From Candidatus Saccharimonadota bacterium (GTDB lineage Bacteria; Pseudomonadota; Alphaproteobacteria; CAJXXZ01; 1604HC), in contig NZ_CP043316.1 in NCBI RefSeq assembly GCF_008189405.1, forward strand, positions 570,001 to 602,000: 32,000 nt of DNA, given 5' to 3'. The position numbers and the translations under genes were made by a program. The notes beneath the pieces are model-generated. The model had not been told where the DNA came from and ran no database searches. It saw only the letters and a program-made list of their open reading frames with translations. Below, in pieces: positions 6,137 to 23,655 of this stretch. Within the stretch, counting starts at the first letter, position 1. The number at the start of each line of letters is the position of its first letter.

Positions 6137-6158
6137 ATTTTAACATCGATCAGATTAT

Positions 6159-6965: not shown

Positions 6966-8626
6966 TTGTTGGATGTGATAAGAAATCTGATAAGAAAGAA
7001 ACAATTAATTCAAAGATAGCTTCTAGTATACAAAAAGAAGATTGGTATGCAGCCTCGAAGCTGCTTAATTTACATTTAAACATGAAAAGCTCTGCTTCAA
7101 TGCATCTAGCAAATGGTTTTATTTACGATAAACTTGCAAAGCAAGATCCATCCTATGCAGGATTATCAGTTATTGCATATAAAAGAGCATTGAATTTAGA
7201 TCCAAATAATTGGTCTGCTTCATTAGCAATCGGTAAATATTATATGAGAGAACATGATTACTTAAAGGCGATCAGCGCATTTGCAAAGACATTGACTTCT
7301 AATGAAAATAATTTCGAAGCATTATATGGAATGGCAAATGCTGCATATGCAACCAGAAACATTACATTAGCAAAAAATTGCATAGATAAAGCTATTGATT
7401 TACGTGGTGATAATAAATTAGTGAATAGGTTGGCTGCATTGATTTATGCTGCACAAAATAACTCTCGAGCAGATAAATATGCAAATAAATATGCATTTAT
7501 GGAAGATGACTTGTATGAAATTAAATATTTAAGAGACAGGATTCAAGACTGGAAGAAAACTCATAAAAAAATGAGATACAATCCTAATTTCATGAAATCT
7601 TTTGATAGCCCTGATACAAATCAGAAGGATGAAAATATTACAATTGAGTGTGTAATTCTAAGCTTTAATGAGTCAGGTGCATTTTCTCGTGGAAATAATT
7701 TCTTAGAAACTTTACAAGAATTTAAAAGAGATGAATTTACTAAAGGGTTAAGTATCAGAATGGGAAATAACTCACAAGTTGAAACTGGGTTAGCTTCTAG
7801 TCCTGTATATAGTAATAATCAAGATAAGAAATATATATTTGATAATGGGAAATGGATTTTAAGTCCAGATCTGAATGATCATAGTAAATTAATTAAGAAA
7901 GGTTTTTCAATTGGATTTGATAGCATTAGATATAATTTAAATATTCTGAACTCTAGCAGCTCTATAATTGATATAATTTCTAGGCCAATTATGCAGGTTT
8001 CATCAAAAAATGGTAAAGGTGCATTTGATTCTAATGATAAAAGTTTTGTAAATACTGGTGGAGATGTAGGTTCTGCATTATCAAATATTCCATCTGGAGT
8101 AAAGCTAGAAGTTGAAGCAAATCAGGTCGATAAGGACCATATTATGTTAGGTGTAATGTTGGAAATAAGCAAAACAACCTTCAAAAACAACATTGGATCT
8201 CTGAATGATAATGCTAATGTGATTAGTGCTCAATTACAAACACAAATCAAAGCTAAATTAAATGAAACAATGGTTATTGGTGGTGTATATAGTAATGTGA
8301 ATGAATCTTCTAAATCAGGAGTTCCTGGCGCACAAAATATGCCATTATTAGATTTAGTGCTTGCAAATAAAAGTACTCATACTTCTAAAAAGTCTGTAAT
8401 GATGCTATTAACTGCAAAAAACACACAAGAATCTAAAGTGATGGAAGTTGATATTGATCGCATGGAAAACGTTGTTCTATTAAAACAAAGTGAGCCATCA
8501 TTCTTTAAGCACAAATATAATAGAGAAAAAACTATAAAACAACAAGTACATGCATATAGAAGAGAGGATATAAAGTCGCTTAATATATCTAATAATACAA
8601 TACAATCATTTGCTGAAAGAATATAA
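6914..8626 (+). CDS. Lipoprotein with N-terminal TPR repeats fused to a C-terminal secretin domain (type II/III secretion / pilus secretin family)
   Basis: Lipobox LLLCFLIVGC. TPR-like helices: AYKRALNLDPNNWSASLAIGKYYMREHDYLKAISAFAKTL, ALYGMANAAYATRNITLAKNCIDKAIDL. Secretin-like C-terminus: ITIECVILSFNES, IISRPIMQVSS, GVKLEVEANQVDKDHIMLGVMLEIS, NETMVIGGVYSN..SKSGVPG...PLLDLVL, MMLLTAK. Confidence 0.7.
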   Translation: MGMSKHKYTKILLLCFLIVGCDKKSDKKETINSKIASSIQKEDWYAASKLLNLHLNMKSSASMHLANGFIYDKLAKQDPSYAGLSVIAYKRALNLDPNNWSASLAIGKYYMREHDYLKAISAFAKTLTSNENNFEALYGMANAAYATRNITLAKNCIDKAIDLRGDNKLVNRLAALIYAAQNNSRADKYANKYAFMEDDLYEIKYLRDRIQDWKKTHKKMRYNPNFMKSFDSPDTNQKDENITIECVILSFNESGAFSRGNNFLETLQEFKRDEFTKGLSIRMGNNSQVETGLASSPVYSNNQDKKYIFDNGKWILSPDLNDHSKLIKKGFSIGFDSIRYNLNILNSSSSIIDIISRPIMQVSSKNGKGAFDSNDKSFVNTGGDVGSALSNIPSGVKLEVEANQVDKDHIMLGVMLEISKTTFKNNIGSLNDNANVISAQLQTQIKAKLNETMVIGGVYSNVNESSKSGVPGAQNMPLLDLVLANKSTHTSKKSVMMLLTAKNTQESKVMEVDIDRMENVVLLKQSEPSFFKHKYNREKTIKQQVHAYRREDIKSLNISNNTIQSFAERI

Positions 8627-8733
8627 TAAATATGGTTAAATTATATGATATCTGTATAGTGAATTTAACTTAATTTTTGCTCAATAATACATTAAGGGCT
8701 TGATTAACCCAAAATTTATGGTAGATTAGTACC

Positions 8734-10407
8734 ATGAAATGTCATCGTAATATTTTAATTGTTGTTTTTTCGAGTTTTTTAATGTATGATTCCCCTCACG
8801 CTATGGGAGAAGAATTAAATAAAGATACAAATAATATGTGTGCATTTATAGTACAAGCTTTAGAAGGCGATGCTGTACAAAATAGATCAGATCTTGTGAA
8901 CATTCTTAAAGAAACATCTATGGTTATGTTAGAATTAGAAGAAATAAAAGGTAAATTAAGTGGATTATCTTCAAAATTAAGAGGATACGGGTTTGATGAT
9001 CATAAATCAGGAACGGAATCAGAGAAAAAATTAATAGCAAAAGAAGTAGAAGAATCAGTTGATAATCAAGAGAAAACTACTATTTGTGATGAGAATGCAC
9101 CTAATTGCGAATCACAGGAATCACAGGGATTAAGTGATAGTTCTGGTAGTAGCTCTTCAGGTAATACGAGCCCATCACATGATGAAATATCAGATTCTAA
9201 GCAACCAGAAACAGAGCTGGTAGTAGCATCTGAAACAAAAAAAGCAGATAGTCAAGAAACTACCAACTGTAATGAGAATACTACTACATTGCTAGATTCT
9301 AAGAAGGATGTTGCAAGTAGAGCTGTATTAGATGCTTCGACAGAATGTGATGACATAGAAGAACTTGATGCAAAATATAAATATACTAAACCAGAAGAAC
9401 CATATGCTGCATACTATACTACAATTCAGGAAGATATAGAAATATTAAAACACGAAATAATGACAACATATGTAGAAGCTGATAGCATAAAGCAAAAATT
9501 ACAATTGAACCAAAGAGTTGTTAGTATACCTGATCTAAGTAATGCTAGCCTTACTAGCTCTGTTCATGATGTACGTTTCAATGAAATTGATATATCAAAG
9601 ATGCATTATGATCCTAATCACTTTAGACTTCATACATTAGAGTTATACGATTGCACTGGCGTTTCATTGCCTCGTATAGATCTATATGACATTTTTCAAA
9701 TATCTATTATTAACCATTTAGGTTCTGAGATGAATGCAAGTGATTTTTTTATGTTACCTATAGATTTTAATCCTTCAGTAGTAAATATTATAAATAGCAA
9801 TTTAAGTGGTGTGTTTATGGGATTATCAAATACTGTATACAAATTGTTAACATTAAACATATCGCATAATGCACTTAAGAAATTTGAGAAATTCTCAGCA
9901 CCAAAATTACAAGTTTTGAATGGTAATGACAATTCATTTACAAATTTACCATTATATTTAGAAAACTTGCAATATTTATTTTTACAAAACAATCTTATTA
10001 ATAATATTGATTGTGATAATAGTTTGAAATCATTGAGAGTGCTAGATTTAAGTGGCAATAATCTTAGTACCCTGAATAGCAACATATTGAAAATTGGTTC
10101 AATTGCTCCTAATCTTGAAGAATTGCATATAAGTCATAATAAAATGGAAGGGTTTATAGATCTAGGGGATATCCCAAAACTAAGAATACTTAAAGCTTCT
10201 GATAACATCAGATTATCAATTAGATTTAATCGTAATATAGAATATATTGATGTTACTAATACTTACATCATGGAAGTTACTAACTGTCCAGCAGTAGCTT
10301 TCATTACATTTGAATATACCCCTAGCATGGTATCAAGCACTGTAATATCACGTACTGAATCACTTTTAAAATCAGATGAGTTTAAAAAAAAACTAATTGT
10401 GAATTAA
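8734..10407 (+). CDS. Secreted leucine-rich-repeat protein with an acidic/Ser-rich N-terminal half. Possibly the 5' part of a gene split at an A9 tract.
   Basis: Signal-peptide-like start MKCHRNILIVVFSSFLMYDSPHA. LRR consensus runs: LTLNISHNALKKF, LQVLNGNDNSFTNLP, LQYLFLQNNLINNI, LRVLDLSGNNLSTL, LEELHISHNKMEG. Confidence 0.75.
   Translation: MKCHRNILIVVFSSFLMYDSPHAMGEELNKDTNNMCAFIVQALEGDAVQNRSDLVNILKETSMVMLELEEIKGKLSGLSSKLRGYGFDDHKSGTESEKKLIAKEVEESVDNQEKTTICDENAPNCESQESQGLSDSSGSSSSGNTSPSHDEISDSKQPETELVVASETKKADSQETTNCNENTTTLLDSKKDVASRAVLDASTECDDIEELDAKYKYTKPEEPYAAYYTTIQEDIEILKHEIMTTYVEADSIKQKLQLNQRVVSIPDLSNASLTSSVHDVRFNEIDISKMHYDPNHFRLHTLELYDCTGVSLPRIDLYDIFQISIINHLGSEMNASDFFMLPIDFNPSVVNIINSNLSGVFMGLSNTVYKLLTLNISHNALKKFEKFSAPKLQVLNGNDNSFTNLPLYLENLQYLFLQNNLINNIDCDNSLKSLRVLDLSGNNLSTLNSNILKIGSIAPNLEELHISHNKMEGFIDLGDIPKLRILKASDNIRLSIRFNRNIEYIDVTNTYIMEVTNCPAVAFITFEYTPSMVSSTVISRTESLLKSDEFKKKLIVN
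10384..10392 (+). repeat. A9 homopolymer at the 3' end of the first LRR ORF; candidate slippage / frameshift site
   Basis: tttAAAAAAAAActaattgtgaattaa. One extra A places the upstream frame into the frame of ORF 10494..11498. That frame is open from 10386. Confidence 0.9.
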
Positions 10408-10493
10408 TAGACACGCTGAGCAGTGAAGAATCTGATGAAAGTGAAGAACTTGATGAAGATATAGAAAATATACAATTTCTAAAAAATGAGCTA

Positions 10494-11498
10494 ATGGTAA
10501 ATGGAAATAGTATTGGAAATCTTTATGTTGTACGTGGTTGCACAAAAGTAGTACTTAATGATATAAAATTGACAGGAAATAAGTTAAGTATTCTGGATAA
10601 AATTATTAGTATAAATGAGTTAAGATATCTTGATTTAGTGAATTGTGCTTTGACCAAGGCTTTACCTAATATATTTACTTTACAACTATTAGAATGCCTA
10701 TCTTTATCTAATAACAACTTATCAGAAATTGTAATAGCAAAAAAAACACTACCATGTTTAAGAAAGCTTGATTTATCTCGTAATAATTTATCAAAATTCA
10801 GTTGTAGGTTTCTACGACAAATAGAAGATTTGGATTTAAGTAGAAATAAAATTAGTGACCTTAAATATATAAAAAATATGAAAAATCTAGTTTCTTTAAA
10901 TATAGCTAATAATAATATAGATCAATTAGATGATATTGGCGATTTAGTTAATATAGAAATACTTAACTTTGTAAATAATCGTATTTCAAAATTACCATGC
11001 TTAGATGCTCTGCAAAAATTACGTGGATATTATGCACGTAATAATAGGTTTGCATGCATAGAAGAAACTTTCAAACCTATTCATAATATAATTTGTAGGA
11101 AAGTTCCAATAGGCGTAATATATAATCCAGATACTATGAGATATGTTGTGAAATATGGTTATCATCATACAATGAATGATGCTCTATATTACCTTCCCTA
11201 TGAGATGCATATTTGTGGTGGGGATGGAAAAGAATATGATGCAATAGAGAAAGTCTCACATACCGATGACGATAAGATATCTAAATTCAAAAAAGAATAT
11301 AGAGTTGGAATTCCCAATTATAATTCTAAACATAGAATGCAAATACATGGAAATGTAGATAAAGGGATATATGATTTCATTAGTCATTATGTAACTGTGG
11401 ATTGTGTGTATTGTGAAGTCAGTAGTACTAATAGACCCCCATCTAATTATGAAGATAATTTTCAAAACATGCAGAGATGCGCATGCTATGGCTATTAG
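10494..11498 (+). CDS. Leucine-rich-repeat protein with a Cys/His-rich non-LRR C-terminal domain. Possibly the 3' part of the split gene.
   Basis: LRR runs: LRYLDLVNCALTKALP, LECLSLSNNNLSEI, LRKLDLSRNNLSKF, IEDLDLSRNKISDL, LVSLNIANNNIDQL, IEILNFVNNRISKLP. No signal peptide. The frame is open 108 nt upstream of the ATG and encodes an acidic stretch (SSEESDESEELDEDIENIQFLKNEL). Confidence 0.72.
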   Translation: MVNGNSIGNLYVVRGCTKVVLNDIKLTGNKLSILDKIISINELRYLDLVNCALTKALPNIFTLQLLECLSLSNNNLSEIVIAKKTLPCLRKLDLSRNNLSKFSCRFLRQIEDLDLSRNKISDLKYIKNMKNLVSLNIANNNIDQLDDIGDLVNIEILNFVNNRISKLPCLDALQKLRGYYARNNRFACIEETFKPIHNIICRKVPIGVIYNPDTMRYVVKYGYHHTMNDALYYLPYEMHICGGDGKEYDAIEKVSHTDDDKISKFKKEYRVGIPNYNSKHRMQIHGNVDKGIYDFISHYVTVDCVYCEVSSTNRPPSNYEDNFQNMQRCACYGY

Positions 11499-11991
11499 AT
11501 TTGTTTATCATTAGTAATTATGCATCTTGATATTTATTCGTAATGTTTTTTATTATGCCTTATAATACCATTTTCAATTAATAAATTAAACTTAAGTTAC
11601 TTTGAATCGCAATCATTTATACCAGAAGATTAGATTAACTATATAAAAATATTAGATCTTTGAAGCAGTTGGTTGAAAGGTTTATACATATAATAAGATC
11701 ATAGTTAGTTAGGATAGCAATGAGAGAAGGGAATTATTTCTACTGCTAATAGTTATGACCATTTGATGTTATGACAATATATATCATCATAAGGTAAATG
11801 GATGGGATGAATAATTTAGAATATCTATACATTATGCTGCTTCGATTGCCTAAAAATGTATTTTCAATAATCTCAATTAATAAATCATAGTATTATATAC
11901 TATTATAAACTAATCCTATATATCAATAACGTAATAACATTTTTCTTAATATTATATAGGTTTGTTAAGTTTATGGATTAATACAGACACA

Positions 11992-12462
11992 TTATTGCAG
12001 GGATTTGATTTTTTCGTTTGAGATTGCATTTAGTTTCTCAATGTCTGAAGATTCTAGTTTTAACATGCCCTCTAATGCGTCCTTTGCACTGTTCATGAAG
12101 TCTCGCCCTCTAGCATTCTCCTTGTATTCTGCCCATCTTAAGAACAAGAAGTTTCCAAAGATCTCTCCCATCATGTCCTTATCACCTTCGTATCCATTCA
12201 GCAATTCCTCTGCTCTGTCAAACAAGTGTACGATATAATCCTCATGATCACGTTCCTTCGCAAGCTTAGCAGCTTCTTCTTTTCTTAATGCTGTAACAGC
12301 CTTGTCTCCATCAGATTTTGCATACCAGTCAGCATAATCCTTCTTGAAAAACTCAACGTCACCTCTACGCTCCTCCCCGGGATAATATGCTTGGAATTTT
12401 CGGTCTCCTCCTCCATTTCCAACTTTATAATAAAGCTTACTCCTAATAATTGCATTTAACAT
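11992..12462 (-). CDS. Stand-alone C-terminal module of the family (copy 2), with its own ribosome-binding site
   Basis: The 156 aa from ATG 12462 are identical to copy 1. AAGGAGG (12478..12472) lies 9 nt upstream of that ATG. The track's longer ORF (to 12498) adds 12 aa that overlap the upstream ORF. Confidence 0.65.
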   Translation of the reverse strand: MLNAIIRSKLYYKVGNGGGDRKFQAYYPGEERRGDVEFFKKDYADWYAKSDGDKAVTALRKEEAAKLAKERDHEDYIVHLFDRAEELLNGYEGDKDMMGEIFGNFLFLRWAEYKENARGRDFMNSAKDALEGMLKLESSDIEKLNAISNEKIKSLQ

Positions 12463-13327
12463 ACTTATCAGCCTCCTTAAAATGCTTTTGCATAGCATTC
12501 CCTACCTTGACAGTTCTAATTACATTCCAAGATGCATCCTGTCTAACAACCTCATCAAGCATGATTTTAAATTTCTCCAAGCCTTTTGCCGCCTCAACTG
12601 CCATCTTCTTTAACGCAATATGCTTTGCAATGTTTGTAAAATGTTCCTTGTCTTTTGATAGGGATTGTAAAATAGTTGCATTAACCTTTGCTGCTTCCGC
12701 TTTATCGCTCAGCATCGATAATCCTGGATTTTCTAGGTTGTACTCATATATTGAATTGTAGTACAAACTATGAGCTTCCAACCTATCTGATTCTAAGTCC
12801 CAATCAACTTCTAATGTTCCATTTTGAGACCTGTCAGCAAGATATACAGCATTTTTGAATACATCACCATCCATGTCATAGTTACCATACGCATCTGCTA
12901 ACTCCGCATAGCGAGTACTCTGCTTCATTATGTAAGAACGGGACTCATAAACGTATCGCAACATGGCATATTCAGTAGCTTGCTCATCCTTTAAATTATT
13001 TAGTTGTTCTTGCAACTCTTCTTCACTATATTTAGATAATGATTCTATGTATTCATCTTCATCATCTTGGTTAATCATTTGCATATATACGATTGATTTA
13101 CACTTATTATCTGTAAGATCTTTAACAACTTCTTTAGTTCCATCAAGTACAGTTTGATAAAACTCATCATCTCTACATTCTAAATTAGATTCCTCCAGCT
13201 CTATTGCTAAAGATTGATCAGATTTCTTCAAACAATATGCAAATTTACTTGTGCATTCCGTTAATTCTGGGCCATTTGCCATAACTGATAAGCATAATAC
13301 CAGCGATAAAATTCTTAGATTCTTCAT
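12443..13327 (-). CDS. Secreted protein, N-terminal part of the family: signal peptide, variable acidic segment and conserved core. Truncated relative to the 532-aa paralogue.
   Basis: MKNLRILSLVLCLSVMANG signal peptide. Residues 120-268 differ at only 5 of 149 positions from residues 116-264 of ORF 17156..18754. The ORF ends (KYVKCNY*) where the out-of-frame C-terminal module begins. Confidence 0.7.
   Translation of the reverse strand: MKNLRILSLVLCLSVMANGPELTECTSKFAYCLKKSDQSLAIELEESNLECRDDEFYQTVLDGTKEVVKDLTDNKCKSIVYMQMINQDDEDEYIESLSKYSEEELQEQLNNLKDEQATEYAMLRYVYESRSYIMKQSTRYAELADAYGNYDMDGDVFKNAVYLADRSQNGTLEVDWDLESDRLEAHSLYYNSIYEYNLENPGLSMLSDKAEAAKVNATILQSLSKDKEHFTNIAKHIALKKMAVEAAKGLEKFKIMLDEVVRQDASWNVIRTVKVGNAMQKHFKEADKYVKCNY
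12472..12478 (-). promoter_or_regulatory. Shine-Dalgarno sequence (AAGGAGG) for the stand-alone C-terminal module, embedded in the end of the upstream ORF
   Basis: Minus-strand sequence ttAAGGAGGctgataagtATGttaaat. Other genes in the window use comparable SD sites (aaggag, aggagg, aaggaga). Confidence 0.55.
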
Positions 13328-13384
13328 ATATCTCCCTTATAAATTGATTTATTATGTTATATTTACACCTAAATAACAAGAGAT
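13328..13384 (-). promoter_or_regulatory. Conserved 5' leader / promoter-proximal region and SD of family locus A
   Basis: Minus strand: atctcttgttatttaggtgtaaatataacataataaatcaatttataagggagatatATG. Locus B: atcttgttatttaaggatagatggaacataataagtcaatttataagggagatatATG. Confidence 0.5.
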
Positions 13385-13474
13385 TTTGCAGGAAAACCTA
13401 CCTGAAATAGGCATAATTTATATAATATTTAGGTAGCAATCTTATAGAGTGTACTATTTCTAATAATAATTATC

Positions 13475-14020
13475 CTAATCGAATATTTCTTCTTTTATCA
13501 CTTTCCCACCCATATCAAACTGCTTCCATATTCCTGATTTATTTCCATCTATGTATTGTCCAAATTCTAGAATATTAGATGATTTTGGGTGATATGTAAT
13601 AGAATTTCCGTAAAGTAAATCATCTTTATAATTCTCTTCTTTGACTAAATACCCTTTTCCAAATATGAAAAATGCTCCATGTTTTTTATTATCCTTATAT
13701 GCTCCTATTTGCGATAAATTACGATTCTCAAATATATACATAGCGCCATCTGGTTTTTCACCCTTATAGTTCATGATCAAACTTAATTCACCATTTTTAT
13801 AAATTTCTACAACTCCATCAATTTTCCCATCTTTATAATTGACTCTTTGTGCAATGGATCCATTTTTATAATATATGCTCTCTCCATTTCGCACGCCATC
13901 TTTCAATATATGCTTCTCAACAACTTTTCCATCAATCACAACTTCTTCAAATTGTTGCTCTGGAATTTCTTCAGTTTTACAGTTCAATTCATGCTTTTTT
14001 ATAATCTGCTCAATATTCAT
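13475..14020 (-). CDS. MORN-variant repeat protein (YwqK-like / MORN_2-type repeats), translationally coupled to vgrG
   Basis: Repeats of the Y-x-N/D-G-x-x-x-G type: YYKNGSIAQRVNYKDGKIDGVVEIYKNGELSLIMNYKGEKPDGAMYIF...AYKDNKKHGAFFIF...YKDDLLYGNSITY...YIDGNKSGIWKQF. No signal peptide. Its ATG overlaps the vgrG stop (cTAATGaat). Confidence 0.75.
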   Translation of the reverse strand: MNIEQIIKKHELNCKTEEIPEQQFEEVVIDGKVVEKHILKDGVRNGESIYYKNGSIAQRVNYKDGKIDGVVEIYKNGELSLIMNYKGEKPDGAMYIFENRNLSQIGAYKDNKKHGAFFIFGKGYLVKEENYKDDLLYGNSITYHPKSSNILEFGQYIDGNKSGIWKQFDMGGKVIKEEIFD

Positions 14021-17000
14021 TAGTTTAAATTCACCATTCCTGCTTTTATATTAATCATTGCTGATGCTTCAATATCTGCTGTTGTATCACTTTTTAGCGC
14101 CACAATTCCTCCTTTTAAGTTTAAATTACCCCCAGCTTCCAAAGTTAGGTTTCCTCCAGATTTAATTGTAAAATTGCTAGATGCCTTATATGTAATCTGA
14201 TTTGCTTCAATTTCCATATTTCCTCCTGAGATTTTGATAGTATGATTTCCACTATTAATCGTTATATCTTTGTTCCCGGAAATTTCTTCTTTACTATTAC
14301 CATTCCCTAGATTTATTTCCATATTCCCTTTAGAAATTTCGATATTCATATTTCCATCCTGAAGTGTAATTTCTTTATTTCCCTTGTTTAAATCTAATTT
14401 ATAATTACCTTCCTCAATTTTCGTAATCATATCTCCATTTTTGAGCTCAGTGAGGAAATGCTTCGCTTCCTCTGATTCTAATTTAATCTCTTTGTTCCCT
14501 TTTTTGATGATTAATATATCATTTCCTTCTCCATCTGTAGGTTCATCTTCCCCAGACAATTCTACCTTTCGATCTCCACGCCCAATAATCAATTCTGAAG
14601 ATCCAGTTTGAATTGTAGAGCTTTTACCATCTTTAATAATTTCCTCATAATCTTTCTCAGCATGCAAAAATATTTTTTCTTCATTTGCTTTGTCCTCAAA
14701 GCTAAATTCATTGAATCCACGCTCTTCGCCTTCTTCAACATCTTTTAGCGATTCTGTTTTTAGGCCAGTTTTCGAAATAACATCTTCAGTTTCAACCAGA
14801 TTATACGGTGGCATTGTAGTTCTATTATATAAGCACCCTGTAATAATTGGGTAATTTGGATTCCCATTTTCGAATGAAATTACAACTTCTTGCCCTATAC
14901 GAGGAACAAAAAATCCTCCCCATTCATTTCCAGCGCCTCCCCATTGCGCAACACGAATCCATACAGCTTGCTGCAGCATCTCTCCATTACTCAAATTCTT
15001 TCTCCCATTATCCCAATGGAAATAAACTTTCACTTGCCCTAGGTGATTTGTATAGATTTTCTGATCCTCTCCACCAACAACAATTCCTGTCTGAATTCCT
15101 GCAATTTTCCTGTATGGCTCAGGTTTGACTTTAAATGGTTGATCAATTTTCGAAAACACGGCGCTATTTTCATAGTGTAAAACCATATCATCCAAATCTA
15201 CAGTAGCATCATCCATATTTTTATCCACAGCCTGATATTCTAATTTATGAGAAACTCGCTTTACATAATACTGCCCATTCATCTCAATATCTGGGTGATG
15301 CGTAAGAACAAACTTGTATCCAGGGCTAACTTCCTGACGAAAAGTTTTTGTATGATATTCTGTCTCACTTGTATCTGCATGTTGATTGCATATTCCATTA
15401 TATTCTTTCACTTTTTGATCTGAGGTAAATGTTTCGCTATAATGATCATCCACATCGCTAGCAGAACTCTCTGATGAATTTGCCCCAGAGGAATTTTCAA
15501 CTTCATGAATTATATTGCGCTTTTCAGGGTCAAGATCTGGGTTGAATCCTTGAAGTTGGGTGGAATTAGGGGCATATTTATGTGCAACATTCCATTGCGA
15601 GATATATTTATCGTTACGACCCTCCAATCCAGTTGTTGTATAATGCAAAGGACGAGAATCGGTGAATGGGTCGGACATATCAAAAACTTTTGAAACAGCT
15701 CCATCTTCTACAGCCCCTTTCCCCTTAGATTGCGATTCAGCAACAATTTGCGTGTCAAAACCATCGTCGAAAATACTCATTTCTCCACTTTGTACGGAAG
15801 TATAGGCGTTCGCTCCTTTGGAGGCTAACTCTCCTGTGGGGCTATAGTTTTCAATGGCATTTTCATACCCTAAATATGTTTTATATGGCGAGGGAGATGA
15901 GGAAGCAGAAGGAGAAACACTACCTGATTCATCAGCAATTTCTGCACCATCTCCAGAATTAAACCCAGCCAAATCATCTTCCTCTTCCTCGTCATCCGCA
16001 TCATAGTTAGCATCTGCACTATCTGACACATCTGCTCCCTGAGGATTATTATAAAACACAATCCCTGTATGCACGTCCGTATGCTCAAAACAATAATAAA
16101 CCCCAAAATCCCTACACAACCGATTCAATAACTCCCAATCCGTCTCCTCATACTGCACTATATATTCAGGAAAATCCTCCTGTTCACTCTTAGCAAAATT
16201 TGTCTGATCATCATAATTCAAATATTTACTCCTTGGATTCTCAATCGCAGCCATACGATATTGTGCATCCAAAATACTCATATTAATATCAATAATTACC
16301 TTATCATAATGATTATCATGCTGGTCATTCTTTGCCTCAAATTCATCTATTTGAATTTCATAATCATCTGATTGTGATTCATAATTTCCATGTATGGCAA
16401 CTAATTCTGAAGTTCTATCTTTTGATTTTTCATCTTTTAAAGTTATATTATTTTTCTTTATTAATCTTTCAATAATATTTGCCATTAATTTTGACTTGTT
16501 AAATATGATATCTTGATTTTGCTCAACTGGTGCGTCATCTACAGATGGATAGAAAATACGATTACGTTTTGTGCCTAATTTAAATTGCATTTCAGGAATC
16601 ATGCTAAACCCATAAACATAATATTGCTCTTCCTTAGTTGGGGTTTTTATTCCTAAATATGTCCATTCATTGATTATTCCATGCCAATATTTTCTATCAA
16701 TATTTGGCTTGCCAACACTTAAGCCCATGTGCATTTTTTTACTAATCATATTTGGTTTTTTCTCAAAAAATGCAACTTCTCCTTGAATAAAGAATGGTTG
16801 AGATAACCCTTCCTCTATATTAACTTTATAAACTCTCCCTAAATGACGTTTATATCTTCTATCTTCATCAGTTTTAGGTTGCCATTGATCATAACCTAAG
16901 GTCGCTAATCCAATCATTTCAAAATCAGAATTATCTTCAACCTTTTGGTTATGCTTATAAGTATTATTATAATCTTCTTCTAAGGTATAATCTTTTTTTT

Positions 17001-17025
17001 CGAGCTCTTCAGGCATTTGAGACAA
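14020..17025 (-). CDS. vgrG: Type VI secretion system spike protein VgrG (gp27-like plus gp5-like plus beta-helical C-terminus), with large insertions
   Basis: IVQYEETDWELLNRLCRDFGVYYCFEH; YKFVLTHHPDIEMNGQYYVKRVSH; KIAGIQTGIVVGGEDQKIYTNHLGQVKVYFHWDNGR...VWIRVAQWGGAGNEWGGFFVPRIGQEVVISFENGNPNYPIITGCLYN...PPYNL. C-terminal degenerate repeats: GNKEITLQDGNMNIEISKGNMEINLGNGN...GNHTIKISGGNMEIEAN. The first codon at 17025 is TTG; the first ATG is at 17016. Confidence 0.9.
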   Translation of the reverse strand: MSQMPEELEKKDYTLEEDYNNTYKHNQKVEDNSDFEMIGLATLGYDQWQPKTDEDRRYKRHLGRVYKVNIEEGLSQPFFIQGEVAFFEKKPNMISKKMHMGLSVGKPNIDRKYWHGIINEWTYLGIKTPTKEEQYYVYGFSMIPEMQFKLGTKRNRIFYPSVDDAPVEQNQDIIFNKSKLMANIIERLIKKNNITLKDEKSKDRTSELVAIHGNYESQSDDYEIQIDEFEAKNDQHDNHYDKVIIDINMSILDAQYRMAAIENPRSKYLNYDDQTNFAKSEQEDFPEYIVQYEETDWELLNRLCRDFGVYYCFEHTDVHTGIVFYNNPQGADVSDSADANYDADDEEEEDDLAGFNSGDGAEIADESGSVSPSASSSPSPYKTYLGYENAIENYSPTGELASKGANAYTSVQSGEMSIFDDGFDTQIVAESQSKGKGAVEDGAVSKVFDMSDPFTDSRPLHYTTTGLEGRNDKYISQWNVAHKYAPNSTQLQGFNPDLDPEKRNIIHEVENSSGANSSESSASDVDDHYSETFTSDQKVKEYNGICNQHADTSETEYHTKTFRQEVSPGYKFVLTHHPDIEMNGQYYVKRVSHKLEYQAVDKNMDDATVDLDDMVLHYENSAVFSKIDQPFKVKPEPYRKIAGIQTGIVVGGEDQKIYTNHLGQVKVYFHWDNGRKNLSNGEMLQQAVWIRVAQWGGAGNEWGGFFVPRIGQEVVISFENGNPNYPIITGCLYNRTTMPPYNLVETEDVISKTGLKTESLKDVEEGEERGFNEFSFEDKANEEKIFLHAEKDYEEIIKDGKSSTIQTGSSELIIGRGDRKVELSGEDEPTDGEGNDILIIKKGNKEIKLESEEAKHFLTELKNGDMITKIEEGNYKLDLNKGNKEITLQDGNMNIEISKGNMEINLGNGNSKEEISGNKDITINSGNHTIKISGGNMEIEANQITYKASSNFTIKSGGNLTLEAGGNLNLKGGIVALKSDTTADIEASAMINIKAGMVNLN

Positions 17026-17100
17026 TATATGAGATGATGGTTAATATTCTCTTAAAATTATGCTGGGCTTTCCTACAATTTATTAATAAACACCACATAA

Positions 17101-17155
17101 ATCTTGTTATTTAAGGATAGATGGAACATAATAAGTCAATTTATAAGGGAGATAT
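17101..17155 (+). promoter_or_regulatory. Conserved 5' leader / promoter-proximal region and SD of family locus B, within the divergent vgrG intergenic region
   Basis: About 80-85% identical to the equivalent 57 nt upstream of locus A. SD aagggaga lies 5 nt before the ATG. Confidence 0.5.
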
Positions 17156-18754
17156 ATGAAGAATCTAAAAATCTTATCATTACTATTATGTTTATCAGTT
17201 ATGGCAAATGGCCCAGAATTAACGGAATGTACAAGTAAGTTTGCGTATTGTTTGAAGAGTCCTGGTCGCGCAACGGAAGTTGCTGTGCCAAATATGGGTG
17301 CACAGGTTCTCACTGATGCCGTATATAAAAAGAGATACGATATAGTAAAGGGTGCAATTCCATCAATAGATGAAGAGAAGTGCAAATATCTTGTATATAC
17401 AATGATTATTAATAGAAAAAGCAAACCAGAATATGTTAAGAAAATAGGTGAGAATACAGTTGAGCAATTGTTTGCAGGTTTATCCAATGCGGATAAATCA
17501 TATGCCATGCTGCGATACGTTTATGAATCTCGTCCTTACATAATGAAGCAGAGTGCTCGCTATGCGGAGTTAGCAGATGCGTATGGTAACTATGACATGG
17601 ATGGGGATGTGTTCAAGAATGCTATGTATTTGGCAGAGAGATCTCAAAATGGAACCTTAGAAGTTGATTGGGACTTAGAGTCAGATAGGCTAGAAGCTCA
17701 TAGTTTGTATTATAACTCGATATATGAGTACAACCTAGAAAATCCAGGATTATCGATGATTAGTGACAAAGCAGAAGCAGCAAAGGTTAATGCAACTATT
17801 TTACAATCCCTATCAAAAGACAAGGAACATTTTACAAACATTGCAAAGCATATTGCATTAAAGAAGATGGCAGTTGAGGCAGCTAAGGGGTTAGAGAAAT
17901 TTAAAATCATGCTTGATGAGGTTGTAAGGCAGGATGCGTCTTGGAATATGGTTCATATAGTTCAGATGAACAAGGCTGCACAAAAGCATTTTAAAGATAC
18001 TCAACTTTATTTAGATGATTTGGTAGGCGTAGAAATAACTATGTCAGATCTGAGATCAATTAAGAATGTCCAAGGTGGATATGTAGTTATTTTTGGCGAT
18101 AAAGACAAAGTAAAATTTGATGAGATTATAGAATTATTTAATACAGATAGGGAAAAATGCAAAGAGCTTATTTGGGAAAGAATAGTAGCGGGAGAAGAAT
18201 ATATAAACAAATATATAGTGAAGCCTATGTTTGATAAGCTCTTTAATGAGATGGAAAAGATGGACAAAGAAGTATTGCAAGAGGTAATAAATAGATCACG
18301 TAAAGAGAAAGTTTGGGGTGAAGTAGGAAATAGGGGAGGAGGAAAGAAGTTTCGCGCATACTACCCAGGAGAGGAGCGTCGAGGTGACGTTGAGTTCTTC
18401 AAGAAGGATTATGCTGACTGGTATGCAAAATCTGATGGAGACAAGGCTGTTACAGCATTAAGAAAAGAGGAAGCTGCTAAGCTTGCGAAGGAGCGTGATC
18501 ATGAGGATTATATCGTACACTTGTTTGACAGAGCAGAGGAATTGCTGAATGGGTACGAAGGTGATAAGGACGTCATGGGAGAGATCTTTGGAAACTTCTT
18601 GTTCTTAAGATGGGCAGAATACAAAGAGAATGCTAGAGGGCGAGACTTCATGAACAGTGCAAAGGATGCCCTAGAAGGTATGTTAAAACTAGAATCTTCA
18701 GACATTGAGAAACTAAATGCAATCTCAAACGAAAAAATCAAATCCCTGCAATAA
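17156..18754 (+). CDS. Secreted protein, full-length member of the family: signal peptide, variable segment, conserved core, ~100-aa unique linker and C-terminal module
   Basis: 532 aa. MKNLKILSLLLCLSVMANG signal peptide. The core YAMLRYVYESR...VVRQDASWN is shared with ORF 12443..13327. The C-terminal ~140 aa are shared with the two other copies; differences include DKDVMG vs DKDMMG and GNRGGGKKFRAYY vs GNGGGDRKFQAYY. Confidence 0.8.
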   Translation: MKNLKILSLLLCLSVMANGPELTECTSKFAYCLKSPGRATEVAVPNMGAQVLTDAVYKKRYDIVKGAIPSIDEEKCKYLVYTMIINRKSKPEYVKKIGENTVEQLFAGLSNADKSYAMLRYVYESRPYIMKQSARYAELADAYGNYDMDGDVFKNAMYLAERSQNGTLEVDWDLESDRLEAHSLYYNSIYEYNLENPGLSMISDKAEAAKVNATILQSLSKDKEHFTNIAKHIALKKMAVEAAKGLEKFKIMLDEVVRQDASWNMVHIVQMNKAAQKHFKDTQLYLDDLVGVEITMSDLRSIKNVQGGYVVIFGDKDKVKFDEIIELFNTDREKCKELIWERIVAGEEYINKYIVKPMFDKLFNEMEKMDKEVLQEVINRSRKEKVWGEVGNRGGGKKFRAYYPGEERRGDVEFFKKDYADWYAKSDGDKAVTALRKEEAAKLAKERDHEDYIVHLFDRAEELLNGYEGDKDVMGEIFGNFLFLRWAEYKENARGRDFMNSAKDALEGMLKLESSDIEKLNAISNEKIKSLQ

Positions 18755-19202
18755 TGTGTCTGTTTTGATGTGAGTTCAATTGCTAAGAGAGATTGATAAT
18801 CAAGCGCCTATTTTACAGCAATATATATTATCAAAATCGTTTGTTTGCATAATTAATCATATTTTTATAAAACTAATTTGCCTCAAATTTATATAATAAT
18901 CTATCAATATAGAATTACAAATTAAGCATAGAACAATAAAGCAAGTTGATAGTATTGATATACATTATAGATTAGTACAATGGAAGGTCTCTAATATAAT
19001 TTTTGATTATGACTATTAGCATATTACCAATATGTTTGGCCATGAATAAATTATAGCTAATATATCAATGATTATCATAATTTTAATATTATATGAAATT
19101 ATTAGCATATATTCACAAGTATATAACAGATTTATACAAATACGATATTAAATTATTACTTAACTGTACATGAAAATATTACTATAAAAAGCATTGCTTC
19201 AA

Positions 19203-20771
19203 TCAAATAGAAAGTGCAGCTTTAATTAGATTATCAAATAATGGATGTGCTCCATCTATATGAGTTTGGAATTCTGGATGAAATTGAACTCCAACATAAA
19301 ATGGATGATCAGTAATTTCAAACCCTTCAAGTAATGTATAATCTGGAGACCAAGCTGATAAATTGAAAAATTTCTCCAAATGCACTTTATAGTGCAAATG
19401 ATTCACTTCATATCTGTGTCTATGCCTCTCAGATGCTAAACCATTGATTAATCTGCCAGAGCTTTCATACATATCATGAATTCTACCAGAAAGCTTACAT
19501 GGGTATGCCCCCAATCTCATGGTTCCACCTTTCACGTTTTCCATACATTCATCAATTAATCCGATTGCTGGATTAACAATATTTTTCTTGAACTCAGAAG
19601 AATAAGTATCAATCTTAGCTATATTACGCAACCCTTCTATAACCATCAGCTGCATTCCTAAGCAAATCCCCAAACATGGAATCTTATTTTCTCTAGCAAA
19701 TTGTAAAGCAGCAATTTTCCCTTCCACTCCACGCTCACCAAATCCACCAGGAACGATAATGCAATTATATTTTGTCAAATCTTGCACATCTAGTTCATCT
19801 GAACTAATTGCAGTAATTTCAACATCAGATTTATACTGAACACCAGCATGTTTTATTGCCTCAATTACTGAACAATAAGAATCATTTATTTTATCGTACT
19901 TTGTAATCAAAGCTAATTTTACCTTATTATCGTATTGGAAATATGGCATGCTAAGCTGCTTGTACTCACATTTTACTCCAAAAAATTCACAAATTCTTTG
20001 ATCTAATTTATCATCATAATACTGTTCTAATACATCGTACAAAGAATCTTGATCCCAAGCTGGAAATACCATATTCTCATCTAAATTAGCAAATAATGCT
20101 ATTTTCTTTTTCCATGATTGATCATCATATTTTTGAGATCTACATAAAATTATGTCTGGCTTAATACCAAATCTTTGTAACTCACTCACTGAATGTTGAA
20201 TAGGCTTTGTTTTGAATTCTTTTGATTTGCTTAAAAATGGCATCAATCCAATATGCAAATAAAGCACATCATAATTTCTTGATTTCTGCCTAATACTCTC
20301 TAAAAATGGCAATCCTTCCATATCACCTATAGTCCCACCAATCTCACAAATCAAGAAATCAGTATCTTCATCTATGTTAGCTGTAATCTTCTCTGAAATC
20401 ATGGATGTAATATGTGGGATAATCTGTACTGTTTCCCCTAAATAGTCACCTTTTCTTTCAGCATTAATAACTTCTAGAAAAATCTGACCAGACGTAATGT
20501 AGTCGTCTTTTGTACACTTAATCCCTACGAAACGCTCGTAATTTCCTATATCCATATCAGTTTCTGTACCATCTTCTGTGACAAAAACTTCCCCATGTTG
20601 ATCAGGGCTTAGAGTTCCAGCATCAACATTTAGGTATGGCTCTAATTTCCTCATTCGAACTTTGAATCCACGTTTTCTAAGCAATAAAGCAACCATAGAA
20701 GCAGTCACACCTTTTCCAAGTGATGACATAACTCCCCCGGTTACAAATATAATTTTCAATTTCGACTTCAT
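19203..20771 (-). CDS. pyrG: CTP synthase
   Basis: IFVTGGVMSSLGKGVTASM, the N-terminal synthetase region, and C-terminal glutamine amidotransferase motifs GICLGMQL and HRHRYEVN...FHPEF. 522 aa. Confidence 0.93.
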   Translation of the reverse strand: MKSKLKIIFVTGGVMSSLGKGVTASMVALLLRKRGFKVRMRKLEPYLNVDAGTLSPDQHGEVFVTEDGTETDMDIGNYERFVGIKCTKDDYITSGQIFLEVINAERKGDYLGETVQIIPHITSMISEKITANIDEDTDFLICEIGGTIGDMEGLPFLESIRQKSRNYDVLYLHIGLMPFLSKSKEFKTKPIQHSVSELQRFGIKPDIILCRSQKYDDQSWKKKIALFANLDENMVFPAWDQDSLYDVLEQYYDDKLDQRICEFFGVKCEYKQLSMPYFQYDNKVKLALITKYDKINDSYCSVIEAIKHAGVQYKSDVEITAISSDELDVQDLTKYNCIIVPGGFGERGVEGKIAALQFARENKIPCLGICLGMQLMVIEGLRNIAKIDTYSSEFKKNIVNPAIGLIDECMENVKGGTMRLGAYPCKLSGRIHDMYESSGRLINGLASERHRHRYEVNHLHYKVHLEKFFNLSAWSPDYTLLEGFEITDHPFYVGVQFHPEFQTHIDGAHPLFDNLIKAALSI

Positions 20772-20780
20772 AATACAATC

Positions 20781-21266
20781 CTATTTTTCTTTATTAATAC
20801 TTTCAGAATTATTTTTACTTGATTCACTATATTGCTTCTGTTCTGATTTGTTTTCTTTTGTATTTTCTATAATATCACTATTTTTTCCTATAGTATTACT
20901 ATTGCTTTTTATTTCACTAATAGAAGCTTTATCAATGTCTCCAGAAGAAGTATTATCTATATGCTCAATATTACTATCAGCAATATCATTAGTATTATTA
21001 GCACTATTTTCAGAAATACTTTCAGAACTAAATTCTTTATTTAATGCAATTTTCTCTTTTTTGATCATAATTCCAATTATTAAACATAAAGATATAAATA
21101 TAACATATAAAGTATATGTTGATTTTGTCAAAAATGTAGACATTGCCCTAGGAGTCATAAATTGAGACTGGCTCATACTTACAGAATCTTCACCTTTTTG
21201 CAAAAATATTAAAATGGATAGGCTCAATACTACTACCAAGTAAATGGACCAAATAAAACTTAACAT
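20781..21266 (-). CDS. secG: Preprotein translocase subunit SecG with a long Ser/Asn/Glu-rich C-terminal tail
   Basis: Two-TM N-terminal ~75 aa with the LIFLQKGEDS (LLQ-x-G-K-G-like) motif and a second TM segment (TYTLYVIFISLCLIIGI). It lies directly upstream of pyrG on the same strand. The remaining ~85 aa are low complexity. Confidence 0.65.
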   Translation of the reverse strand: MLSFIWSIYLVVVLSLSILIFLQKGEDSVSMSQSQFMTPRAMSTFLTKSTYTLYVIFISLCLIIGIMIKKEKIALNKEFSSESISENSANNTNDIADSNIEHIDNTSSGDIDKASISEIKSNSNTIGKNSDIIENTKENKSEQKQYSESSKNNSESINKEK

Positions 21267-21354
21267 TCCTACATTTTACAGAAAATTCAAAACCTTAGCA
21301 ATTGAATAATATGAATTCATAATCATTATTACAAACTGAGGTAACCATCATTAT

Positions 21355-22596
21355 TTATTGAGATTTCCTGAATATTTCTAATTGTTTTATAAGATCAGAA
21401 TATGGTGCTGGAGCATCTTGCTCTACGAACCACTCTTTAAGTTTGTCTAAGTATTTCTTCACACCAGGACCAGAAGGCAAATGCATGATATTCATTACAT
21501 CATTTCCAGAAAAATGAAATAAATTCTTCTTCCATGGCTCCAAGAATTGTAAGTCATCTAATGCGCCTTTTAAAATAAATCCATCATTCCATAAATCACT
21601 TGGAACTTCATTAATCCACTTAATGTAATCAGATTTCTCTTTCATTACATTTACATTTCTAAGTAATTTGATATTTTTTTTCTGCAAATTTGACAGCTTT
21701 ACATTCTCAATACTACCATCAAAAGAAGCAAATTTCGCTAGAGCTGAAGACTTTAAATTCATTGCTTTTTCTTTTACAATAATATTTTCTAACACATCAA
21801 AATTTGGTTTTGGGAAATCACAATGTTCCCAAATATTAATATCATCCATTAATCTAAGAGTAGAAATAAAATTACACGCATCTAATAACTTCATCATTTC
21901 ATTAATACATCTTTCTCGTGCAATCTTTTGCAAATTCTGCACATATTTCTTACATGCATGCAATGATTCAAAGTCATAATTCTTACCATAATGAGCCAGA
22001 AAACGGAAAAATCTAAGAATACGCAAATAATCTTCTTGGATTCTTAAATCTGGATCTCCAATAAATCTAATCATCCCTTTTTTTATATCATCCAGACCAC
22101 CAACGAAATCATAAATTTTGCCATTGATATCTGCATATAGCGCATTGATTGTTAGATCACGCCTTTTAGCATCTTCTTCCCATGATTTGGAAAATTCTAC
22201 TTGAGCATGGCGTCCATCTGTATCAATGTCTACACGTAAAGTTGTGACTTCAAAAACATCACCATCCATCACACATGTAACAGTCCCATGCTGTAATCCT
22301 GTTGGAATGACTTTAAATCCTGCTTTTTTTGCTAATCTCATTACTTCTTCAGGCAATAACGGGGTTGCTAAATCTACTTCATCATTTAAACCTTTGCCAA
22401 TCATTGAATTACGAACACAACCTCCAACAGCCATACACGGATCCAATACTTTCATCAGTTTCTGTAAATTACTATTTTGGAGCCAATCCATCAAATTACC
22501 TTTTCTCCCATTGCCTTTGCTATCATCATTTTTGCTATTACTGCTTCTCCTATCATTACTTTTTCCATTAAATTCATATTTTTCTATCCAATGCAT
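21355..22596 (-). CDS. cca: CCA-adding tRNA nucleotidyltransferase / poly(A) polymerase family protein
   Basis: AVGGCVRNSMIG...DEVDLAT...TGLQHGTVT...EVTTLRVD...RRDLTINAL...GGLDDI..G.IRFIG...ED.LRILRFFRF. Start is uncertain. The longest ORF reaches 22689 but overlaps tatD by 116 nt. ATG 22596 (MHWIEKY) or ATG 22491 (MDWLQNS) are more plausible. Confidence 0.8.
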   Translation of the reverse strand: MHWIEKYEFNGKSNDRRSSNSKNDDSKGNGRKGNLMDWLQNSNLQKLMKVLDPCMAVGGCVRNSMIGKGLNDEVDLATPLLPEEVMRLAKKAGFKVIPTGLQHGTVTCVMDGDVFEVTTLRVDIDTDGRHAQVEFSKSWEEDAKRRDLTINALYADINGKIYDFVGGLDDIKKGMIRFIGDPDLRIQEDYLRILRFFRFLAHYGKNYDFESLHACKKYVQNLQKIARERCINEMMKLLDACNFISTLRLMDDINIWEHCDFPKPNFDVLENIIVKEKAMNLKSSALAKFASFDGSIENVKLSNLQKKNIKLLRNVNVMKEKSDYIKWINEVPSDLWNDGFILKGALDDLQFLEPWKKNLFHFSGNDVMNIMHLPSGPGVKKYLDKLKEWFVEQDAPAPYSDLIKQLEIFRKSQ

Positions 22597-23347
22597 TAAT
22601 TCGCATGAAATTGTAAAAGTTAGTAGTGGTAATATTTGCGAATTCATTTTCATCAATACCTTTAAGCTCGGCAATATATTTACCAACATGTGAAACGTAT
22701 GCTGGTTCGTTTGATTTACCTCTATATGGAGCAGGGGCTAGGTATGGAGAATCAGTTTCAATAAGGATTCGATCTAATGGTACAAATCTTGCTACTTCTC
22801 TAACATGCTCTGCATTTTTAAATGTAATAATGCCTGAAAAAGAAATCATCCAACCTAAATCTAAAATATTCTTCGCAAATTCCAATGTTCCTGTATAACA
22901 GTGTCCAATTCCCCTTACATTATATTTTCTTAGCAAATCTAATGTTAAATCTTCTGCCTCTCTCATATGTAAAACCAAAGGTAAATCATGTTTTTCTGCA
23001 TGAACAAGTTGCACTTCAAAGCCTGGAATCTGCTTATTAATATCACTACCTTTAAAGCTATCCAATCCAGCTTCACCAATTGCAATAATATTTTTCTTAC
23101 CAATCCATTTAGTTAAATAATTATCAATTTCATTAACCTGGCCAATTTTATCATCTAATGGATGCACGCCAACAGAAAACCATATATTATCTCGTAAATA
23201 TGCATATGATTTATCTAATGTATTCGTTGTAGTGCTAATGCTCATTGCTCCAATAACATCATGATTTTTCATGTTTGACATTACTTTCTCTATATCTTTA
23301 CTCATAGGCTCGTAATCTAAATGGCAATGGCTATCTATCCAGTTCAT
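22574..23347 (-). CDS. tatD: TatD-family metal-dependent hydrolase (DNase)
   Basis: MNWIDSHCHLDY start, IGEAGLD, HMREA, GHCYTG and ETDSPYLAP motifs. 257 aa. Confidence 0.88.
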   Translation of the reverse strand: MNWIDSHCHLDYEPMSKDIEKVMSNMKNHDVIGAMSISTTTNTLDKSYAYLRDNIWFSVGVHPLDDKIGQVNEIDNYLTKWIGKKNIIAIGEAGLDSFKGSDINKQIPGFEVQLVHAEKHDLPLVLHMREAEDLTLDLLRKYNVRGIGHCYTGTLEFAKNILDLGWMISFSGIITFKNAEHVREVARFVPLDRILIETDSPYLAPAPYRGKSNEPAYVSHVGKYIAELKGIDENEFANITTTNFYNFMRINALDRKI

Positions 23348-23506
23348 TGATCAAATTGTAACGTTACCATACAATTCCATCAATAGAATACAGAGATTTA
23401 CATTTTCTTTTGCATTTATTTTTATATTGCTTAAAATTGTAAACTATACTTCTTTTCACCTTAGCAACCTTGTGTTTATTTATAATACAAGTGTAAAATT
23501 AGTTAT

Positions 23507-23578: not shown

Positions 23579-23655
23579 TACCTAATCTTATAGCAAACGC
23601 TATAGTTAGCTTCACCTTATAGCGGATACTGTGGTTATATATTAGAATATAGTAG

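Follow-up and report, generated by a model that had tools for sequence, protein, structure and literature searches.

A putatively exported protein family beside the vgrG-ywqK genes of the modified type VI secretion system of Cytomitobacter

Which proteins work alongside the spike of a type VI secretion system (T6SS) in an endosymbiont whose genome measures about 620 kb? This question is raised by a stretch of 32,000 nucleotides from contig NZ_CP043316.1 (assembly GCF_008189405.1, positions 570,001 to 602,000), called the window in the following sections. In this window, a vgrG spike gene and a small gene of the YwqK/MORN type lie between inverted copies of a gene that belongs to no recognised family. 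At 100% identity, the protein encoded by the intact copy matches a hypothetical protein from Candidatus Cytomitobacter primus, which lives as a Holosporaceae endosymbiont in the diplonemid Diplonema japonicum. The comparison presented here shows that this family is a constant element of the vgrG-ywqK module within the modified T6SS of Cytomitobacter, and weighs what such a protein may do there.

The T6SS of C. primus has been described as "modified", most of its core genes being present, but neither Hcp nor TssJ was detected in these genomes (George et al., bioRxiv 10.1101/719211; Curr Biol 2020; statements attributed to this work refer throughout to the available part of its text). A YwqK-family protein adjoins VgrG in all diplonemid endosymbionts, and leucine-rich repeat (LRR) proteins are encoded beside T6SS genes (10.1101/719211). 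A modified, TssJ-less T6SS is common to the Holosporaceae, Nesciobacter included (George et al.; 2025 review). According to the same review, the T6SS is the most conserved host-interaction apparatus of the Holosporineae, and no molecule secreted by it is known.

A gene family fixed to the vgrG-ywqK module

The genes of the module and the family copies are positioned in the window as follows.

14020-17025, minus strand: vgrG (tssI) spike gene, 1001 amino acids from a TTG start codon, 998 amino acids as annotated in OX638200.1
13475-14020, minus strand: YwqK/MORN-variant repeat protein, 181 amino acids, without signal peptide, its start overlapping the vgrG stop
17156-18754, plus strand: locus B, intact family gene, 532 amino acids
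17026-17155, no strand: divergent intergenic region of 130 bp between vgrG and locus B, which contains the leader common to the family and, at 17104-17132, a promoter-like site
11992-13327, minus strand: locus A, disrupted family copy consisting of two overlapping out-of-frame open reading frames, 12443-13327 (294 amino acids) and 11992-12498 (168 amino acids)
13328-13414, minus strand: shared 5' leader of the family genes, with the Shine-Dalgarno sequence AAGGGAG and a promoter-like TTGTTA-17-CATAAT at 13379-13351
2-490, plus strand: 3' end of a third family copy (C-terminal 162 amino acids and stop codon), the gene running off the left window edge

The spike protein matches TIGR03361 with 277.9 bits (cutoff 186.35; E-value 1.5e-82) and contains the domains Phage_GPD (PF05954), Phage_base_V (PF04717) and Gp5_trimer_C (PF22178) above their cutoffs, which identifies it as a VgrG/TssI. 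Its stop codon and the start codon of the MORN gene overlap as TAATG. The same overlap is present in three further genomes of the genus, OZ247489.1, OZ247501.1 and that of C. indipagum (CP043315.1), and the coupling of the two genes put forward in the original prediction is thereby upheld. The MORN_2 (PF07661) match of the 181-residue protein reaches 19.8 bits, under the cutoff of 29.6; the identical protein is named YwqK family antitoxin by the NCBI, and its orthologues have precomputed PF07661 matches.

As had been claimed, scans with Pfam and NCBIfam detected no T6SS core gene in the window except vgrG. The proposal that this gene might be an orphan or a relic does not hold, since tssL, tssM and tssA lie about 15.6 kb away in the PacBio HiFi assembly of the same strain (OX638200.1, 622,378 bp), where NCBIfam models confirm all three (1.6e-25, 1.5e-46 and 1.7e-29, respectively), and the majority of the core genes have been reported in this organism (George et al.). 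Two family genes and a segment of 11 kb separate tssLMA from vgrG in this assembly. In the coordinates used here, tssLMA presumably lies just past the left edge of the window.

Alignment of the copies confirms that loci A and B are inverted, outward-facing paralogues, as originally described. They have in common the N-terminus, a core with 5 substitutions, a C-terminal module, a leader of about 55 nt and the Shine-Dalgarno sequence AAGGGAG, and they form inverted repeats of 498 nt (89%), 449 nt (93%) and 166 nt (87%), the last of which includes the leader. The third copy at 2-490 had been overlooked; this stretch is 100% identical to the 3' end of a 535-residue gene of OX638200.1. Indeed, the HiFi assembly holds three intact paralogues, namely locus B (532 amino acids), the 535-residue gene downstream of vgrG-ywqK, and a 536-residue gene situated 172 nt downstream of tssL-tssM-tssA. 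All C. primus copies carry the same leader of 55-87 nt with TTGTTA-17-CATAAT and the Shine-Dalgarno sequence, and that of locus A shows 97% blastn identity to the leader of the tssA-adjacent gene; the promoter scan by itself is not significant in such AT-rich DNA.

The family itself was searched for widely. Members from all four genomes have no match in Pfam, NCBIfam or PADLOC, and profiles of 7 and 9 sequences reached a best E-value of 0.41 against the sequences of the PDB. Queried both with one sequence and with a profile, a word-indexed collection of 5.8 billion proteins yielded the C. primus copies only, and an exhaustive phmmer search of 1.84 billion cluster representatives found a single distant relative with 27% identity. 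Scanning of GTDB genomes added only two further Cytomitobacter-like genomes of about 620 kb, OZ247489.1 and OZ247501.1; the copies of C. indipagum were reached through the MORN orthologue, and a scan of JGI metagenomes yielded no member. No homologue was therefore found beyond the genus Cytomitobacter among the 1.84 billion representatives, the GTDB genomes and the JGI metagenomes. The family was correctly called unrecognised: the sequence and profile libraries, the HMMER search and the Foldseek comparison given below agree on this point, and none of the libraries searched gives a confident match to a housekeeping periplasmic family.

The gene order at the loci of the other three genomes is the following.

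OZ247489.1: 574-residue copy (minus strand), vgrG, MORN gene, 194-residue open reading frame, vgrG 5' fragment (minus strand), 542-residue copy (plus strand)
OZ247501.1: 556-residue copy (minus strand), vgrG, MORN gene, 558-residue copy (plus strand)
C. indipagum: 431-residue copy (plus strand) 36 nt upstream of vgrG, MORN gene, vgrG 5' fragment (minus strand), 432-residue copy (minus strand)

All nine full-length copies in the four Cytomitobacter genomes adjoin T6SS genes, eight of them the vgrG-MORN pair and one tssA; homologues that are common and free of any T6SS link were thus not encountered. The outer flanking genes differ in each species while the module stays intact, and the copies of C. 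indipagum face inwards, unlike the outward-facing ones of C. primus. Partial, inverted duplicates of the vgrG 5' end stand beside the second copy both in OZ247489.1 (9607-9903 of the locus, minus strand, 98 amino acids) and in C. indipagum (10635-11240 of the locus, minus strand, 201 amino acids), which indicates that the ancestral duplication unit was the family gene together with the vgrG 5' region.

These fragments also lend themselves to a reading without any functional T6SS link, in which an exported family of orphan genes was duplicated along with the vgrG 5' end and has been kept by synteny and repeat-mediated rearrangement. The near-identical inverted copies do coincide with a rearrangement between two assemblies of the same strain, and all four genomes belong to one genus, so that the observations of linkage are not fully independent. 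A passive association of this kind nevertheless fits poorly with a module that holds together while its surroundings change, with an adjacency to vgrG that persisted when the orientation changed, with a third copy beside tssA, and with the maintenance under purifying selection of two or three copies of a gene of 1.3-1.7 kb in a 620-kb genome. It is considered unlikely.

Several other features of these loci deserve mention. Within the gp27-like region of VgrG, residues ~330-560 form a long acidic, Ser-rich insertion of low complexity (DADDEEEEDD..., SSSPSP...), and the C-terminal beta-helix gives a weak match to the Francisella TssI model (3.6e-07). Another Cytomitobacter-like vgrG-MORN pair, with 62% identity in the MORN protein, is found on a 2,395-bp Logan contig of SRR12358676, which stops about 200 nt past the MORN gene; an end of this kind would be expected had a repeated family gene interrupted assembly of the short reads. 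In OZ247489.1, the 194-residue open reading frame between the MORN gene and the second copy (9038-9622 of the locus, plus strand) begins with a family-like signal peptide, MKYLRNIFLLLCL..., and has otherwise no similarity; it could represent either a remnant or an exported protein of its own. In the same locus, a 220-residue PLDc_2 protein with a single HKD motif and an N-terminal hydrophobic segment is encoded 49 nt downstream of a family copy (11678-12340, plus strand). It resembles the small phospholipase D (PLD) proteins of rickettsial type and is not a conserved partner: a PLD effector was rejected as partner because it occurs in OZ247489.1 only and is missing at the C. primus, OZ247501.1 and C. 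indipagum loci.

Inverted copies and the two assemblies of one strain

The copy at the left window edge and locus A delimit a segment in which further genes of possible interest reside.

541-11941, no strand: segment of 11.4 kb bracketed by about 99% identical inverted family 3' ends
6914-8626, plus strand: secretin with an N-terminal tetratricopeptide repeat (TPR) region
8734-10407, plus strand: LRR protein of 557 amino acids (LRR557) with a signal-peptide-like N-terminus
10494-11498, plus strand: LRR protein (LRR334)

The segment encodes an S1-domain protein, tlc, asd, a glyoxalase, dapB, bacA, the TPR-secretin, LRR557 and LRR334. The secretin and the two LRR genes, which lie between two family copies, may belong to the same host-interaction neighbourhood. 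The inverted repeat formed by the left-edge copy and window 11942-12463 extends over 522 nt with 99% identity.

The segment lies in opposite orientations in the two assemblies of this strain. By blastn, window positions 1-5054 and 12457-28754 match one HiFi locus at 100%, the former in reverse, and positions 1992-12463 match the other HiFi locus at 100%. Window 541-11941 is thus inverted relative to OX638200.1 at 157.7-168.0 kb, which amounts to an inversion of about 11 kb within the same strain. Locus A is a composite of the two parents: its 5' 871 nt derive from the 535-residue gene and its 3' 472 nt from the 536-residue gene adjacent to tssA, with 265 nt missing at the junction (12457-12463) relative to the intact 535-residue HiFi gene. 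The homology noted earlier for locus A is consequently real, while the locus is not one gene but two out-of-frame open reading frames; its appearance as a truncated hypervariable copy is probably not real, an intact 535-residue gene being present there in the HiFi assembly.

The breakpoint and the 265-nt deletion are both located in a stretch over which the parent genes show 100% identity (119 codons, 0 differences), and the sole source of the 294-residue fragment is the older C. primus assembly (622,357 bp), that of George et al., which was built with SPAdes from Illumina reads only and carries the broken locus A. Because the breakpoints lie in this identical stretch of an Illumina-only SPAdes assembly, the simplest reading is that the breakage and the inversion are probably an assembly mis-join. 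The asymmetry between a short locus A and a 532-residue locus B probably reflects the Illumina-only assembly rather than biology. A real variant produced by repeat-mediated recombination is a possible alternative. In either case, near-identical inverted copies are a hazard for short-read assembly, and it is exactly there that the Illumina and HiFi assemblies disagree. Since the copies are inverted and nearly identical, the DNA between them, that is, the vgrG-ywqK pair and the 11-kb segment, would be invertible.

The repeats also account for the base composition. The region of vgrG and the family had seemed richer in GC than its surroundings, and this impression is correct, with 0.34-0.40 against ~0.27-0.31 in the flanks. 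The modules shared between paralogues (17501-17980 and 18341-18751 in locus B) have a GC content at third codon positions (GC3) of 0.36-0.44, whereas the variable modules and the neighbouring genes reach 0.16-0.26; within the window, the shared modules have values of 0.38-0.44 and the other genes 0.16-0.26. This excess characterises C. primus and C. indipagum and is missing from OZ247489.1 and OZ247501.1. It explains the "GC-richer island", and may stem from GC-biased gene conversion. A horizontally acquired GC-rich island was rejected: the excess is confined to the shared modules, in C. primus as in C. indipagum, and import would explain this less well than biased gene conversion. The only tRNA gene in the window, tRNA-Cys(GCA) at 23507-23578 on the plus strand, is not adjacent to the module, and there is no sign of a tRNA-targeted island insertion.

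Predicted export, variability and the possible role of the family

The intact gene at locus B can be divided into six parts, all on the plus strand.

Residues 1-18 (17156-17209): putative signal peptide
Residues 19-34: conserved N-terminal stretch
Residues 35-115 (17258-17500): hypervariable segment V1
Residues 116-275 (17501-17980): conserved core
Residues 276-395 (17981-18340): variable segment V2
Residues 396-532 (18341-18751): conserved C-terminal module

The proteins of this family measure about 430-575 amino acids. All nine N-termini show a start containing K/R, a hydrophobic run of 10-12 residues and an A-x-A-like site (VMA|N, IDA|C, ITA|N or IFA|G). Neither a Cys nor a lipobox is conserved among them, the proteins of OZ247501.1 and C. 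indipagum having no Cys in their signal region, which argues for a Sec signal cleaved by signal peptidase I rather than a lipoprotein signal. No further hydrophobic segment follows (the 19-residue hydropathy maximum past residue 25 is at most 0.95). The mature proteins would be acidic and hydrophilic, with an isoelectric point of ~4.9-5.6 and a grand average of hydropathy near -0.6, and AlphaFold models predict them to be almost wholly helical.

One possibility is that these proteins are cargo effectors of the VgrG spike, with the MORN protein as adaptor or immunity protein. The original prediction left the choice between cargo, immunity and accessory partner. The tie to the T6SS spike holds for all nine copies, and cargo turns out to be the least likely of the three. 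The position downstream of vgrG and a small coupled gene is typical of effectors, the family is lineage-specific with a variable domain, and the Holosporineae have no known T6SS substrate (2025 review). The N-terminus speaks for another route. Canonical T6SS cargo is loaded in the cytoplasm, and polymorphic T6SS toxins vary at the C-terminus; here a Sec-type signal peptide is recognised by inspection in nine of nine members, which makes canonical cargo unlikely, and the variable part is N-proximal. Moreover, no PAAR, MIX, Rhs, DUF4123, DUF1795, DUF2169 or toxin domain was detected, and no adaptor family is encoded in the loci. Cargo is accordingly judged very improbable. A prePAAR or transmembrane-anchored effector was also considered and rejected, there being no motif and too short a hydrophobic run, as was a lytic transglycosylase, suggested by a YES...AYGNY motif and unsupported by any SLT match.

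An apparently exported protein could instead be a periplasmic or outer-membrane accessory that replaces the missing TssJ and anchors or guides the membrane complex. Neither TssJ nor Hcp was found in these genomes (George et al.; 2025 review), and one copy stands directly downstream of tssL-tssM-tssA. This role is quite improbable, because a lipobox is lacking, the family is confined to Cytomitobacter whereas TssJ-less systems also exist in Nesciobacter and other Holosporaceae, and multiple copies with a hypervariable domain are atypical of a structural part. A lipoprotein analogous to TssJ was likewise set aside, as the Cys is not conserved.

The pattern of variation is informative in its own right. 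Paralogues of one genome differ little or not at all in the signal peptide and the initial residues, whereas the DNA of V1 (~80 residues, N-proximal) cannot be aligned and is saturated, with 21-29% amino acid identity in C. primus. Most of the remaining sequence is homogenised in C. primus and OZ247501.1, and only parts of it in OZ247489.1, where the middle modules are 52-62% identical, and in C. indipagum, whose copies are 56% identical overall. For the core and the C-terminal module of C. primus, dS is 0.3-0.5 between locus B and the other two copies and dN/dS is 0.05-0.13. Judged by these substitution patterns, the family genes of C. primus are shown to encode functional, selected proteins, with purifying selection acting on the conserved modules.

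A variable exported protein beside vgrG calls to mind immunity. A signal peptide combined with adjacency to vgrG is the classical signature of immunity to periplasm-acting effectors (Tsi/Tai/Tli). The paralogues would in this case neutralise periplasm-acting T6SS effectors from sister cells, from other Cytomitobacter or from the co-resident Nesciobacter, with V1 matched to toxin variants. The signature is present, its export part being predicted in nine of nine members; the paralogues are multi-copy with a variable segment, the family is restricted to one lineage, and the window contains the peptidoglycan-pathway genes dapB, asd and bacA. Two Holosporaceae species inhabit one host, for which effector/immunity compatibility has been invoked (George et al., 10.1101/719211). 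The neighbourhood offers no counterpart, however: no conserved candidate effector stands beside any copy in the four genomes, the neighbours being vgrG, a cytoplasmic MORN protein, tssA and unrelated genes, and Pfam and NCBIfam scans detected no C-terminal toxin domain in VgrG. The proteins are also large for this role, with ~400 strongly constrained residues, and the genes are inverted flanks with their own promoters rather than a tandem array downstream of a toxin. Periplasmic immunity is thus possible but rather doubtful, although it is the strongest of the rival readings.

The reading preferred here, tentatively and with somewhat less than even confidence, is that the family is a Sec-exported, non-cargo partner facing the envelope, the host or the target, which works alongside the T6SS spike. 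Each copy would be transcribed from its own repeat-borne promoter, and the copy nearest to vgrG would share its promoter region divergently with vgrG, or, in C. indipagum, lie directly upstream of it. The protein would be exported by Sec and cleaved after the A-x-A-like site, and therefore not loaded onto the spike; its site of action would be the periplasm, the cell surface or the surroundings of the cell. Its release might proceed through a secretin system resembling type II secretion (T2SS) or type IV pili that is encoded nearby. The putative signal peptide, the secretin in the window and the T2SS E and F genes, which are situated 6-7 kb from the loci in OZ247489.1 and OZ247501.1, make type II secretion a possible route. 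The helical V1 segment may serve as specificity determinant and the conserved body may provide a common function supporting spike activity, while gene conversion among the copies would keep the remaining ~400 residues alike. One example of such a role would be contact with host structures or with the mitochondrion.

Several points weigh against this preferred role. The signal peptide was judged by inspection and hydropathy, without a trained predictor. The AlphaFold2 models have a mean pLDDT of 44.6 for the full protein and 55.7 for residues 36-280, with confidence only at residues ~51-135, and the lack of any Foldseek match in the PDB at E <2 is a weak negative, given such poor models. A host-facing role provides no strong reason for the tight linkage to vgrG, which could stem from inherited synteny or have arisen as a side effect of segmental duplication. 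The proximity of T2SS genes is weak evidence in a genome of 620 kb and is absent in C. indipagum, and co-regulation with vgrG is suggested by the gene arrangement only.

A bolder version of the exported-partner reading, to which little probability is given, would make the family a novel class of T6SS partner, exported by Sec and specific to a system that lacks both Hcp and TssJ. It could be a targeting or tethering factor of the surface or periplasm whose V1 chooses the target of the spike (the host mitochondrion or a co-symbiont), or a protein that the spike collects in the periplasm. Recombination between copies would then reshuffle V1 and V2 and flip the DNA in a shufflon-like manner independent of a recombinase.

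Relation to known systems and meaning for Cytomitobacter

Known systems resemble this module in part. Auxiliary vgrG modules, such as the aux clusters of Vibrio cholerae and the vgrG islands of Pseudomonas aeruginosa, comprise vgrG, an adaptor, an effector and an immunity gene. The present module is like them in that vgrG lies away from the main structural genes and that a small coupled gene and lineage-specific genes come after it. It differs from them by having no adaptor family (DUF4123, DUF1795, DUF2169), no PAAR and no recognisable toxin, and by possessing instead a partner predicted to be Sec-exported, with inverted copies on both sides of vgrG. In P. aeruginosa, tandem periplasmic immunity paralogues, Tli5b, reportedly with Sel1-like repeats, are said to stand beside a pldB/vgrG phospholipase effector. 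Like these arrays, the Cytomitobacter genes are multi-copy, carry putative signal peptides, are modelled as helical and lie by vgrG; unlike them, they have no detected Sel1 or other repeat family and no adjacent cognate effector, and their copies are inverted.

The mode of evolution resembles that of msp2/p44 of Anaplasma, an exported multigene family of an obligate intracellular bacterium in which gene conversion operates around a hypervariable segment. Conserved flanks around a hypervariable segment, concerted evolution and a reduced intracellular genome are common to both. In Cytomitobacter, however, there are two or three full-length, expressed-looking copies without a pool of pseudogene donors, the proteins are modelled as soluble and helical rather than porins, the host is a protist without adaptive immunity, and the genes are linked to the T6SS.

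The modified T6SS of George et al. concerns the same organism and locus, with the vgrG-YwqK pair, LRR genes by T6SS genes and most core genes. What is already known therefore includes the type of locus (vgrG with lineage-specific neighbours), the T6SS of the organism, the YwqK gene and the LRR neighbours. The configuration was proposed to be new, and this stands for one part only: the combination of vgrG, YwqK and LRR genes was published before, and no description of the exported flanking family was found. The available text of George et al. (10.1101/719211) makes no mention of an exported paralogue family beside vgrG, of its mosaic evolution or of invertible segments bounded by repeats. New are the genus-restricted, putatively exported family fixed to vgrG, the mosaic pattern of its concerted evolution, and the segments bounded by repeats in which the two assemblies disagree.

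The T6SS is the one secretion machine that almost all Holosporineae have retained, even in genomes of 620 kb, and neither a substrate nor a partner of it is known in any of them (2025 review). The inverted copies probably promote rearrangement in a genome that would otherwise be expected to stay unchanged. A family that is bound to vgrG, multi-copy, selected and putatively exported is a candidate for the dealings of Cytomitobacter with its host, with the host mitochondrion that enwraps it, or with a co-symbiont, and it provides the first concrete candidate partner for any T6SS of the Holosporineae.

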